Shown: in pieces, positions 1,135 through 33,921 of the stretch | Numbering within the stretch: position 1 is the first letter of the stretch | How the letters are laid out: every line of letters starts with the position of its first letter | Assembly: GCF_988242995.1 (NCBI RefSeq) | Contig: NZ_OZ547043.1 | Direction: 5' to 3' (one strand) | DNA length: 64,000 bases | Position numbers and translations under genes: made by a program | The notes under the pieces: model-generated | Told to the model about the DNA's origin: nothing | Database searches by the model: none | What the model saw: only the letters and a program-made list of their open reading frames with translations

Positions 1135-3483
1135 ATGCTGAGTTTATACGAAAAGATAAAGATAAGGCTGATAATTTTATTTTTATTGGCAGCACTGTCA
1201 TTTATTGGCCTTTTTTTCATCATTAACTATCAACTGGTATCGGAACGCGCGGTAAAACGTGCCGATAGCCGCTTTGAACTTATTCAGAAAAACGTTGGCT
1301 ATTTCTTTAAAGATATTGAACGTTCGGCCCTGACATTAAAGGACTCACTGTATTTATTAAAAAATACAGAGGAGATTCAACGCGCTGTGATCCTTAAAAT
1401 GGAAATGATGCCATTTTTAGACTCGGTGGGACTGGTACTTGATGATAATAAATATTATCTCTTTTCGCGGAGGGCGAATGATAAAATCGTTGTTTATCAT
1501 CAGGAAGAAGTAAATGGACCGCTTGTCGACGAGTCAGGGCGGGTTATTTTTGCCGATTTTAATCCATCGAAACGACCATGGTCGGTGGCTTCAGATGACT
1601 CTAACAACAGCTGGAATCCGGCCTACAATTGCTTTGATCGTCCGGGTAAAAAATGTATCTCTTTTACGCTACGCATCAACGGCAAAGATCACGATTTGTT
1701 AGCGGTGGATAAAATACATGTCGATTTAAACTGGCGATATCTGAACGAGTATCTTGATCAAATCAGCGCTAATGATGAAGTTCTATTTTTGAAACAAGGC
1801 CATGAGATCATTGCCAAGAATCAACTCGCGCGTGAAAAACTGATTATTTATAATAGCGAAGGTAATTATAATATTATTGATTCTGTCGATACTGAATATA
1901 TTGAAAAAACATCAGCGGTGCCAAACAACGCATTATTCGAAATCTATTTTTATTATCCTGGCGGTAATTTATTGAACGCATCAGATAAACTTTTTTATCT
2001 GCCGTTTGCTTTCATTATTATCGTATTGCTGGTGGTTTATTTAATGACCACTCGTGTGTTCCGTCGGCAATTTTCTGAAATGACCGAGCTGGTTAATACG
2101 CTGGCGTTTTTGCCCGACTCAACGGATCAGATCGAGGCTCTGAAAATTCGCGAAGGCGATGCGAAAGAGATTATCAGCATCAAAAATTCGATCGCGGAAA
2201 TGAAAGATGCTGAAATTGAACGGGCAAATAAATTGCTCTCGCTGATCTCTTACGATCAGGAAAGCGGTTTTATTAAAAATATGGCGATTATTGAGTCCAA
2301 CAATAATCAGTATCTGGCTGTGGGGATCATCAAACTGTGTGGTCTGGAAGCTGTGGAAGCGGTGTTTGGTGTTGATGAACGCAATAAAATCGTCAGGAAA
2401 TTGTGTCAGCGAATTGCCGAGAAATATGCGCAATGCTGCGATATCGTGACATTTAATGCCGATCTCTATTTACTCCTGTGCCGGGAAAATGTACAGACGT
2501 TTACCCGTAAGATAGCGACGGTAAACGATTTTGACAGCAGTTTTGGCTACCGCAATCTGCGCATCCATAAGTCTGCTATTTGTGAACCTTTGCAGGGGGA
2601 AAACGCCTGGAGTTACGCAGAAAAGCTGAAACTGGCGATTTCCAGTATCCGCAACCATATGTTCTCAGAGTTTATTTTCTGTGATGACGCGAAACTCAAC
2701 GAAATAGAAGAGAATATCTGGATTGCGCGTAATATTCGCCATGCAATGGAAATTGGCGAACTATTCCTCGTCTATCAACCGATCGTTGATATTAACACCC
2801 GCGCCATTCTGGGCGCGGAGGCGTTGTGCCGTTGGGTGTCTGCGGAGCGGGGGATCATTTCACCGCTAAAGTTCATTACCATTGCTGAAGATATCGGGTT
2901 TATCAATGAGCTGGGTTATCAGATTATTAAAACGGCAATGGGTGAATTCAGACATTTTAGTCAGCGTGCGTCGCTGAAGGATGATTTCTTACTGCATATT
3001 AATGTTTCGCCCTGGCAGTTAAACGAACCACACTTTCATGAGCGTTTTACCACCATCATGGAAGAAAATGGCCTGAAGGCGAACAGCCTCTGTGTTGAGA
3101 TCACTGAAACCGTGATCGAGCGAATTAATGAACATTTTTATCTCAATATTGAACAACTGCGTAAACAAGGAGTACGGATATCGATTGATGACTTTGGCAC
3201 CGGTTTGTCAAACCTGAAACGTTTTTATGAAATTAATCCAGATAGCATAAAGGTGGACTCACAATTTACCGGCGATATTTTCGGTACTGCGGGAAAAATT
3301 GTGCGCATTATTTTCGATCTGGCACGCTATAACCGGATCCCGGTGATTGCGGAAGGCGTAGAGAGCGAAGACGTTGCGCGCGAATTAATCAAATTAGGAT
3401 GTGTTCAGGCTCAGGGGTATCTGTACCAGAAACCCATGCCGTTCTCCGCCTGGGATAAAAGTGGAAAATTAGTAAAAGAGTAG
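1135..3483 (+). CDS. pdeI: c-di-GMP phosphodiesterase PdeI (YliE), membrane-anchored EAL-domain protein
   Basis: ORF track 1057-3483 trimmed to ATG at 1135 ([12 protein letters not shown]...) giving 782 aa as in K-12; N-terminal TM helix, C-terminal EAL-type region (…ELGYQ…, …DDFGTG…). Confidence 0.9.
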
Positions 3484-3490
3484 TTTACGT

Positions 3491-4819
3491 ATGTCCAGAA
3501 TCAATAAGTTCGTACTTACAGTCAGTCTGCTGATTTTTATCATGATTTCAGCAGTTGCCTGCGGGATCTACACTCAAATGGTAAAGGAACGGGTGTATGG
3601 CCTGAAACAGTCCGTTATTGATACTGCTTTTGCGGTGGCAAATATTGCTGAATATCGGCGTAGCGTGGCAATTGATCTCATCAACACGCTAAACCCCACG
3701 GAGGAACAGCTGTTGGTTGGTTTGCGCACAGCTTACGCCGACTCGGTTTCACCCTCTTATTTGTACGATGTCGGTCCTTATCTGATTTCCAGTGACGAAT
3801 GTATTCAGGTAAAGGAGTTCGAGAAAAATTATTGTGCAGATATTATGCAGATTGTGAAGTATCGACATGTCAAAAATACAGGGTTTATCTCTTTTGACGG
3901 TAAAACCTTCGTCTATTACCTCTATCCGGTAACTCATAATCGTAGTCTGATATTTTTGCTTGGTCTGGAGCGTTTTTCTTTACTGTCAAAATCGCTGGCG
4001 ATGGATAGCGAGAACCTGATGTTCTCTCTGTTTAAGAACGGTAAACCGGTGACCGGTGATGAATATAATGCTAAAAACGCCATCTTCACCGTTTCGGAAG
4101 CGATGGAGCACTTCGCCTATTTGCCGACCGGATTGTACGTATTTGCGTATAAAAAAGATGTTTATTTGCGGGTCTGTACATTGATTATTTTCTTTGCCGC
4201 ATTGGTGGCAGTGATATCGGGTGTCAGTTGCCTCTATCTGGTACGCAGAGTGATTAATCGTGGTATTGTGGAGAAAGAAGCCATCATTAATAACCATTTT
4301 GAACGCGTACTGGATGGCGGGCTTTTCTTTTCAGCTGCCGATGTCAAAAAACTCTACAGTTTGTATAACTCGGCGTTCCTGGATGACCTGACCAAAGCAA
4401 TGGGCAGAAAATCCTTTGACGAAGATTTAAAAGCGCTGCCGGAAAAAGGCGGTTATTTGTGCCTGTTTGACGTCGATAAATTCAAAAACATCAACGACAC
4501 CTTCGGTCATTTGCTGGGCGATGAAGTGTTGATGAAAGTGGTGAAAATCCTTAAATCACAGATCCCCGTAGATAAAGGTAAAGTCTACCGCTTCGGCGGT
4601 GACGAATTTGCGGTGATTTATACGGGTGGAACGCTGGAAGAGTTGCTATCGATTCTAAAAGAAATTGTTCATTTCCAGGTGGGAAGCATTAATTTAAGCA
4701 CCAGTATCGGTGTAGCGCATTCAAATGAATGTACTACCGTTGAACGCTTGAAAATGCTGGCGGATGAGCGGCTGTATAAGAGTAAGAAAAACGGCAGGGC
4801 GCAGATTAGCTGGCAGTAG
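3491..4819 (+). CDS. dgcI: diguanylate cyclase DgcI (YliF), membrane GGDEF protein
   Basis: 442-aa ORF, N-terminal TM segments, C-terminal GGDEF-like region (RFGGDEF at ...[14 protein letters not shown]). Confidence 0.9.
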
Positions 4820-31824: not shown

Positions 31825-32553
31825 TTAGTGAGAGAGATAGTTTTTAAATGCTTCGGTTTGCGGCTCGGTAAAGCAGCTCGCGTCGCCTTGTTCTACGATA
31901 TGACCGTTTTCCATATACACTACTCGGCTGGCGGTTTTACGCGCCACTTCAACTTCGTGGGTGACGATCACCTGGGTAATATTCGTTTCTGCCAACTCAC
32001 GAATGATGCTGACGATTTGTGCCGTAATTTCCGGGTCCAGTGCGGCGGTCGGTTCATCGAACAGCAGTACCTGCGGTTCCATCATCAACGCACGGGCAAT
32101 AGCAACACGCTGCTGCTGACCACCAGAAAGATGCAGCGGGTAACGATCGCTATAAGGTTTGAGACGCAGACGTTCCAGCAGTTTTTCTGCACGGGTCAGC
32201 GCCTGATCTTTGCTCAACCCCAGTACACGGCAGGGCGCTTCAATCAGGTTTTGCTGCACGGTCAGATGCGGCCACAGGTTGTATTGCTGAAACACCATGC
32301 CAACGTTACGACGCAAATCGCGAATCGCTTTGTCAGAGGGTGTTTTGGTGAAATCGAAATGGTTGCCTGCAATGTTGAGCGTACCGGAGCGCGGCATCTC
32401 AAGCAGATTGAGTACACGCAGCAGCGAGCTTTTACCCGCGCCGCTGGGGCCAAGTAACACCAGCGTTTCGCCCTGTGGGCAATCCAGCGTGATATCGAAC
32501 AGCGCCTGATGCGCGCCGTAGAAGCAATTAATGCCGTTTAATTGAATACTCAT
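31825..32553 (-). CDS. artP: arginine ABC transporter ATP-binding protein ArtP
   Basis: ORF track extended to 32652; trimmed to [13 protein letters not shown]..., 242 aa; Walker [18 protein letters not shown]. Confidence 0.92.
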
Positions 32554-32770
32554 TGACACTCGTATACTGGCAGTCTGATAGCTATTGAGGTCGAAGATAG
32601 TACCTTTGACAGAATAATTATGCAATATTTCTGCTTTAAAAGTTAAAAGCAAAGCGCATTATTCAATAAACATAGCACAAAATAACGGGGGCGGTGGTCG
32701 GCGAGCATAAATGTCGGCATTCCTCACGAAATGCCGGACAATTTACGGGGTTTATTGGTTGATCAAGGCG

Positions 32771-33286
32771 TTAGCGATTCTCGATGGACTGACGGAGCGT
32801 ACCCGCTGTGGCATGAACGCTACCGCCTAAGTAGCGCACATCGTCGATGACCCAACACTGGCCTTCCTGAATCATTAACACTTCATCCTGCCAGCCCTGG
32901 TCACCCTGTTTGAGATCCACGCGCAATGGAATGTTACGGGCATCACGATTAGGGATAGTCGATGCACTGGCAACGTGGGCGCTGTCTGGCAAGGTGGTTC
33001 GACTGGAGAACGGATCGCTGCTTAACAATTCACGATGACTGTTATCGCGGCTGGCATCGCTAAGTAGGGTTGCCAGTTTGTCACTCAAATAGGGGCGCAG
33101 GGCGGTAATGTCATTGCTGCGATGTTGAATGCGGTAGTCATAGAATTGTTGAGCCACGCTGTCAGGGCCACCCTGGACACAGGAACCGGTGCGGGGGCCG
33201 TTATCTTTATAAGCTGGCGTGACGGTGGTACAGGCACTCAGCAGCAGTGCACATGGAATAAGTAGAGATAGTGAACGGTAGCGCAT
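32771..33286 (-). CDS. ybjP: lipoprotein YbjP
   Basis: Lipobox LLSAC near N-terminus; 171 aa from MRYRSLSLL... Confidence 0.88.
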   Translation of the reverse strand: MRYRSLSLLIPCALLLSACTTVTPAYKDNGPRTGSCVQGGPDSVAQQFYDYRIQHRSNDITALRPYLSDKLATLLSDASRDNSHRELLSSDPFSSRTTLPDSAHVASASTIPNRDARNIPLRVDLKQGDQGWQDEVLMIQEGQCWVIDDVRYLGGSVHATAGTLRQSIENR

Positions 33287-33921
33287 AATCATTTCCTTAT
33301 TAGCTTGCTGTCTGTGTCACACTACGACCAAACACTATCAGATTATTTAATACATTGTTTTTAGTACAATTCTGAAACAATCTGAACACCTGATTAGGTT
33401 TGAGTCCATTGCTGGCTACCCACTCAAGGTTGCTCGTAGCTGACTTACTTAAATTACCCAAACAATAGACAGTGTAAACCATTTGTGAGGTTGAGCGTGT
33501 TATATGGCTGAAATGATCATTTAAGGTAAATATGATAGTTCTGAAATGGCGGGATAAATCCTCCTGTAGAGGTTAAGAGCATCTGCAAGAAGCCAGTTTC
33601 ACATTTATAACGCGTGATAAATGAACGCGGTTATTGTCTAATCATTACAGAATTTTTCACATGCAATAAGAGATCCTGCGATTAAGATGATTGCTAAAAT
33701 TACATTGTATTTTTGAAAATGAGCGAAATTTGATAGTCCCAGCTTTGACTTTTGATAATATTATATATGCTACAGTTGTGGGTAAAGAATTTAAGCTAAT
33801 GAGTTTGAGCGAAGAATAAATCAAACTGTATCAGTGTTTCGTTAATTAATATGAGTATAAATGCGTTGTGCTTTTATAATAATAAAGCACGAGGAGTTCA
33901 GAGGAATATCTTTTCCCTTGG

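Follow-up and report, generated by a model that had tools for sequence, protein, structure and literature searches.

In the 64,000-nt stretch of DNA analyzed here (the window), the core gene ybjP and a divergently oriented, strain-variable pentapeptide-repeat gene are separated by an unusually long and AT-rich intergenic gap. The locus raises the question of what this DNA does and which of its two neighbors it serves. Our analysis suggests that the gap is likely a two-part divergent regulatory region created by the insertion of a ∼2.5-kb islet, with the promoters and 5′-UTR of ybjP in its left part and the upstream region of an apparently silent island gene in its right part.

Extent, Composition, and Coding Content of the Gap

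The window region corresponds to artJ-artMQIP-ybjP-ybjQ-amiD of Escherichia coli. According to the RefSeq annotation of identical and near-identical loci, the ybjP coding sequence, which specifies a DUF3828 lipoprotein, occupies positions 32771–33286 on the minus strand. The island ORF (33934–35703, plus strand) encodes a 589-residue pentapeptide-repeat protein that is confined to E. coli and Shigella. Setting the borders by the RefSeq start codon of ybjP (ATG, 33286) and by the ATG of the island ORF (33934), we obtain a gap of 647 bp (33287–33933). An earlier note, made from the sequence alone, had placed it at 33293–33921, using a longer ybjP ORF and the GTG at 33922, and was off by at most 12 nt at each end. 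In a 35-kb neighborhood of strain Sakai, the equivalent gap (623 bp) is the longest among all intergenic gaps.

The gap had been called very AT-rich, and its GC content is indeed 0.347, compared with 0.501 for the whole window. Among 629-bp segments of the window, just 3% have a GC content this low, and all of them lie inside the same islet. The gap is not richer in AT than the island ORF (GC 0.323); its left 328 bp (GC 0.378) are the least AT-rich portion of the islet, and its right 313 nt have a GC content of 0.307. The sole other stretch of the window with a GC content below 0.40 is found around positions 850–1900 (0.38–0.40 in 629-bp segments).

We searched for a conserved protein-coding gene by homology, using Pfam, NCBIfam, and protein clusters, and found none in the gap; neither Pfam nor NCBIfam matches any of the four longest ORFs (60, 55, 42, and 32 codons). 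The earlier statement that ∼630 bp lack a credible ORF describes a long, ORF-poor gap correctly (647 bp) but overlooks ORF60, a 60-codon frame that is open in all seven alleles compared. ORF55, ORF42, and ORF32 are disrupted by stop codons or frameshifts in other alleles.

Origin and Distribution of the Islet

The ∼125-bp ybjP-ybjQ spacer of K-12, E. albertii, Salmonella, and Citrobacter aligns with the first 41 nt of the gap (33287–33327, from the ribosome-binding site AAGGAA through CTACGA), and outgroup alignment identifies the other end of the ancestral spacer at 35856–35913 (plus strand), next to ybjQ, where it carries the main ybjQ promoter. Between these two remnants lies an AT-rich islet of ∼2.5 kb (33328–35855, limits approximate to ∼10 nt), which is absent from K-12 and from 80 outgroup loci. 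In alignments with the outgroup spacers, the insertion replaced the central ∼26–29 nt of the ancestral sequence, and all of the gap except its first 41 nt is islet DNA.

The outgroup comprised 80 loci with YbjP from species-representative genomes (Escherichia, Salmonella, Citrobacter, Enterobacter, Klebsiella, Kosakonia, and others). Neither the ORF nor, by blastn, the islet DNA is found in any of these 80 Enterobacteriaceae loci. About 60 of their ybjP-ybjQ gaps measure 96–170 bp, a few 209–280 bp, and five Citrobacter gaps are larger; ∼12 loci yielded no usable measurement. Within E. coli, the islet occurs in 1128 of 5426 complete genomes at 83–100% identity, in single copy and always at the same chromosomal locus. 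Strain AF39 is 100% identical to the window over the gap and the downstream ORF, and K-12 and CFT073 lack the islet and have a ybjP-ybjQ spacer of only 125 bp. A phage collection contained no match to the islet, and a plasmid collection returned only three very large E. coli records (0.73–4.9 Mb), which we read as chromosomes or chromosome fragments.

The islet contains one ORF only, with no integrase, transposase, tRNA, or att site. A repeat search revealed short chance matches but no terminal inverted repeats, and a classical mobile element or genomic island was rejected on these grounds. The hexamer TATCAG occurs near both islet ends (33336–33341 and 35859–35864). The designation of the gap as xenogeneic DNA is borne out, because the sequence is strain-variable, missing from the outgroups, AT-rich, and noncoding.

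Unrelated insertions of 1.1–3.2 kb occupy the ybjP-ybjQ spacer at five Citrobacter loci. Judged by translations alone, they carry a cold-shock-protein-like gene together with a small Cys-rich ORF as well as an AppA-like phosphatase, and a single species has a QnrB-like pentapeptide-repeat gene. The spacer looks like a recurrent insertion hotspot in Enterobacteriaceae.

The genes flanking the islet carry traces of recombination. Compared with K-12, the 5′ 300 nt of ybjP in the window are ∼79% identical and the 3′ 216 nt ∼98%, with 99.3% identity in artP and 100% in the artP-ybjP spacer. The split within ybjP indicates that the islet haplotype reaches into the 5′ half of the gene and that a recombination breakpoint lies near 32986. 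ybjP is highly polymorphic in Escherichia, and other representatives carry further alleles (82–91% identity). On the other side, ybjQ of the window (35914–36237) shares only 93–97% identity with the ybjQ of all other islet-bearing strains examined, AF39 among them. As the AF39 gap and ORF are 100% identical, a further breakpoint must lie just right of the ORF (35704–35913).

Transcription Start Sites in and around the Gap

Start sites at this locus have been mapped by Cappable-seq in O157:H7 strain EDL933 under eight conditions (Zehentner et al. 2023, PMC10469882, Table S5). Listed for ybjP (RS04960) on the minus strand are 1,033,012 (LB, M9, and salt in exponential phase; salt in stationary phase) and 1,033,014 (stationary LB and stationary acid), together accounting for six of the eight conditions, as well as 1,033,043 (exponential salt, stationary M9, and stationary salt). 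We find that these sites correspond to window positions 33463, 33465, and 33494, respectively, and that the 45 nt upstream of each are identical; the sites themselves come from the O157:H7 allele, which is 98% identical to the window and in which the island gene is a split pseudogene.

Because the EDL933 start sites map inside the gap, its left 177–208 nt represent the ybjP 5′-UTR. On the minus strand, the leader measures 177–179 nt from the main start (33287–33465) and 208 nt from the second start, at which it extends to 33494. The ybjP promoter region can be assigned to 33466–33530 (minus strand) from its position relative to the mapped starts, and it is almost invariant in the seven alleles. 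As read from the sequence, a −10-like TACACT (33476–33471) would serve the 33463/33465 start, and TTTACC (33530–33525) and CATATA (33506–33501), separated by an 18-nt spacer, would serve the 33494 start, all on the minus strand.

The gap had been described as a leader upstream of the island ORF. This label fails, as the genes point away from each other and transcription of the left part runs toward ybjP. The accompanying suggestion that the gap contains promoter or regulatory elements is correct insofar as experimentally mapped start sites lie within it, but those mapped serve ybjP on the opposite strand and not the island ORF.

Two further sets of starts are listed in the EDL933 data. A plus-strand antisense start within ybjP (1,032,702; window ∼33153) was recorded in four of the eight conditions (PMC10469882), and the TAGAAT upstream of it is also present in the window. 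A transcript from this site would run antisense through the 5′ end and the 5′-UTR of ybjP toward the island ORF. For ybjQ, starts are reported that correspond to window 35880, in ancestral DNA (EDL933 1,035,442), and to 35836, in islet DNA (PMC10469882); the GATAAT of the main ybjQ promoter (35868–35873, plus strand) lies upstream of the 35880 start.

Allele Comparison Divides the Gap in Two

We compared seven alleles (eight copies, AF39 being identical to the window), of which WL297 is the most divergent. The gap splits at ∼33620: the left part is 91.7–100% identical across alleles and free of indels, whereas identity in the right part ranges from 76 to 99.7%, with 3–13 gap positions. The island ORF is 81–100% identical. 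In WL297, position 33621 marks an abrupt rise in divergence from ≤10% to 40%, and the border between the conserved and variable parts coincides with a 22-bp near-perfect palindrome detected in the repeat search (CATTTATAACG followed by CGTGATAAATG, 33602–33623). In strain CUWW06, an IS1 element follows position 33619 (3328–4095 of the CUWW06 locus), and the sequence from there to 12 nt short of the ORF stop codon is lost. A metagenome contig lacks ∼33311–34252 (at 3686–3690 of that locus), which removes most of the gap and 318 nt from the beginning of the ORF. Mosaic structure is plainly visible in allele JNE21.

The left part appears best conserved and indel-free because the ybjP promoters and 5′-UTR reside there, with a probable contribution from recombination history. 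Its higher conservation may in part reflect that history rather than constraint, given the sharp step at ∼33620, the mosaic structure of JNE21, and the finding that in WL297 the left part diverges by 8.3% compared with 5.2% at third codon positions of ybjP. The right part, a few conserved blocks aside, seems to evolve at a roughly neutral rate: its divergence is 24% in WL297 and 8% in O157, compared with 27.5 and 5.6%, respectively, at third positions or synonymous sites of the ORF.

These rates would also be expected if most of the gap were functionless spacer, made up of decayed islet remnants whose pattern of conservation stems from recombination breakpoints only. The near-synonymous divergence of the right part, the natural deletions (the IS1-mediated loss right of 33619 and the loss of 33311–34252), and the frequent recombination evident from mosaic alleles all speak for such an interpretation. 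We regard it as quite unlikely, since the mapped ybjP starts and their upstream sequences lie inside the gap, the left part of the O157 allele carries only 7 differences although the local synonymous rate predicts ∼19, a block that includes a promoter candidate (33715–33764) is nearly invariant within the otherwise variable right part, and no relic of a known protein is detectable.

ORF60 in the ybjP Leader

ORF60 (33300–33482, minus strand) lies just upstream of ybjP, and the left part might encode a genuine small protein, translated from an upstream ORF that shares its transcript with ybjP, in which case the gap would not be fully noncoding. Its frame is open in seven of seven alleles, including an 83%-identical one, within a region that has no indels, and it ends 8 nt from the start of the long ybjP ORF. 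It is a hypothetical protein in some GenBank entries, and the EDL933 start-site study works with an annotation that places a minus-strand “RS04965 hypothetical protein” at this position, with 1,033,043 as a shared start site (PMC10469882). However, we identified relatives in only 4 of 5.8 billion protein clusters, all from E. coli or Shigella, and found no Pfam or NCBIfam match. Variable sites are distributed 2/7/10 over the three codon positions (∼p = 0.08) and are thus not concentrated at third positions, WL297 has lost the stop codon, and the ATG is not preceded by a Shine-Dalgarno sequence. This ATG (33482) is located upstream of the main ybjP start at 33463/33465, so most ybjP transcripts would lack it. 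ORF60 is also not among the translated intergenic ORFs reported from Ribo-seq of O157:H7 Sakai (PMC5597208), and it has been dropped from current RefSeq. Taken together, ORF60 is probably not a gene, and a coding function for the left part is very improbable.

The Island Gene and Its Upstream Region

The 589-codon frame is intact in seven of the eight copies (six of seven alleles), with only the O157:H7 copy broken. Divergence from WL297 by codon position (0.166/0.119/0.275) indicates coding constraint on the ORF. The protein scores just under the cut-off of Pfam Pentapeptide_4, and weak NCBIfam matches to HalA and Qnr cover the pentapeptide repeats only and fall far below their cut-offs. Among 1.84 billion representative proteins, we recovered nothing beyond its own cluster, fragments of it, and pentapeptide proteins that are unrelated and align over residues ∼357–465, and PADLOC defence models gave no match to the ORF. 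Identity with EspX3′ was considered and rejected, as EspX3′ corresponds to ECs4654/4655 and the island locus to ECs0949/0950. A literature search with the locus tags ECs0949/0950 and Z1095–Z1098, or with ybjP/ybjQ and pentapeptide, returned nothing on this locus.

Both a 600- and a 589-residue form of the protein are present in the database. The longer form starts at an annotated GTG, present in most alleles, which is GAG in the window (33901–33903, plus strand, by alignment). Because this GTG is out of frame in WL297, the ATG at 33934 is the only start codon that is in frame in all seven alleles, and we argue that it is the start of this orphan gene. In many genomes, RefSeq lists the gene among pseudogenes, with the label “missing C-terminus” or “frameshifted.” Many of the “missing C-terminus” calls look like artefacts, seemingly caused by use of the upstream GTG (equivalent to 33901) and of a truncated reference.

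Our best candidate for an island gene promoter is a sigma-70-like sequence, TTGATA-18-GATAAT (33730–33759, plus strand), which agrees with the consensus at 10 of 12 positions. Neither hexamer varies among the seven alleles, in a right part that is only 76% identical in WL297. Transcription from the predicted start near 33766 would yield a 5′-UTR of ∼168 nt; none of the start sites listed for EDL933 falls here. Toward the end of this putative leader, a weakly supported hairpin can be recognized in the sequence (33866–33892, plus strand; stem GTGCTTT/AAAGCAC, 9-nt loop), directly followed by a Shine-Dalgarno-like GAGGAG (33891–33896, plus strand).

A long 5′ region, a conserved hairpin adjoining the ribosome-binding region, and conserved blocks in an otherwise fast-evolving right part are features that would be compatible with a small RNA or a structured cis-regulatory leader of the riboswitch or thermometer type controlling the island gene. 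The hairpin stem is, however, maintained in RNAalifold by one-sided, G-U-compatible changes only, without compensatory pairs, and over the predicted structure as a whole a compensatory change is seen in just 2 of 39 pairs, a comparison of seven alleles with low statistical power. Rfam 15, searched at E ≤ 1 over positions 32000–37000, gave no match in the gap (a sub-threshold CRISPR-DR53 match at 32705–32741 lies outside it, in the artP/ybjP interval), and no terminator-like site was found in the gap on either strand. The minimum free energy of the conserved left 328 nt is no better than that of shuffled sequences (z = −0.10 and −0.09 on the two strands), indicating no excess stability. Finally, no plus-strand start within the gap appears among the EDL933 start sites listed (PMC10469882). 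The small RNA that had been suggested as possible for the gap thus finds no counterpart in these searches, and RNA-based control of the island gene of either kind is highly unlikely.

For the island gene itself (RS04970), no gene-specific start within 250 nt upstream and no antisense start is found among the sites listed for the eight EDL933 conditions (PMC10469882). Judging from these listed sites, which derive from the split-pseudogene allele of O157, the island gene appears to be silent in laboratory culture.

Possible Silencing by H-NS

In E. coli, horizontally acquired DNA of high AT content is a well-established preferred target for coating by H-NS. The earlier note had seen phased A/T tracts in the gap as a signature of such silencing. 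We measured AA/TT and A4/T4-tract power at periods of 10–11.5 bp against dinucleotide-preserving shuffles and detected no phasing over the whole gap (p = 0.77 for AA/TT and 0.74 for A4/T4), with neither half performing better. The high-affinity H-NS motif TCGATAAATT, allowing ≤2 mismatches, has no match between 31233 and 34019, and its count over the entire window is not above chance. Published H-NS ChIP datasets cover K-12, SE11, and SE15 (PMC4720273) and CFT073 (PMC9765446), and of these strains K-12 and CFT073 lack the islet. H-NS binding to the gap is plausible from its base composition, and the lack of a listed start site for the island gene would fit silencing.

Discussion

We propose that some E. 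coli lineages acquired a ∼2.5-kb AT-rich islet in the short spacer that ancestrally separated ybjP and ybjQ and that the gap now would work in two directions. Its left part (∼33287–33620, GC 38%) would serve ybjP on the minus strand, with 33463/33465 presumably the starts used in most conditions and 33494 the one used with salt or in stationary phase. The resulting 177–208-nt 5′-UTR would consist almost wholly of islet DNA, with the promoters directly upstream. The right part (∼33621–33933, GC 31%) would form the upstream region and short 5′-UTR of the pentapeptide-repeat orphan gene, for which TTGATA-18-GATAAT is the best promoter candidate. Coating of the AT-rich tract (30–32% GC, ∼2 kb) by H-NS/StpA would be the most likely cause of the apparent silence of this gene.

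Overall, the gap is an ordinary feature, an uncharacterized case of a familiar kind. As in other divergent bacterial promoter regions, ybjP (minus strand) and the island ORF (plus strand) diverge from a single intergenic region, inside which the ybjP starts are mapped. It departs from the usual arrangement in being unusually long (647 bp), in having halves that differ in composition and evolutionary rate, and in that, among the EDL933 start sites listed, transcription is detectable for only one of the two genes.

A second resemblance is to the H-NS-bound upstream regions of acquired E. coli genes such as ybdO (Higashi et al. 2016, PMC4720273), which share with the gap the AT-rich, strain-variable DNA upstream of a foreign gene, an evolution faster than that of adjoining core DNA, and a gene that is silent, in the case of the island gene apparently so, in standard culture. 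The gap differs from these regions in having neither a phasing or curvature signal nor a high-affinity motif, and H-NS occupancy is here inferred. Moreover, part of it has been taken over as promoter and 5′-UTR of a core gene on the opposite strand.

The island gene itself recalls the EspX1–X7 loci for pentapeptide type III effectors of EHEC. It too is an AT-rich pentapeptide-repeat gene of E. coli and a pseudogene in O157:H7, and one database source names its product “putative type III effector.” It is, however, none of the named EspX genes, and among 1.84 billion representatives the protein has no full-length relative outside its own cluster.

The islet may have done more than supply a new start of transcription. 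It could have rewired ybjP, with the foreign promoters and the 177–208-nt 5′-UTR acting as a genuine regulatory device and subjecting the gene, in about one-fifth of E. coli genomes, to a regulation unlike that in K-12-type strains. This could operate through ORF60 as a condition-specific upstream ORF of the salt/stationary transcript, or through the plus-strand transcript from ∼33153 acting as an antisense regulator. We consider such a device unlikely and favor the simpler two-part divergent region.

The importance of the locus is limited, and it provides a clean, small example of how a short AT-rich insertion can pull apart the promoters of two core genes. The ancestral promoter stays with ybjQ, and the mildly interesting point is that ybjP, a core gene, is now transcribed from starts in foreign DNA in about one of every five E. 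coli genomes. As a result of the islet insertion, the regulation of ybjP could differ between E. coli lineages.
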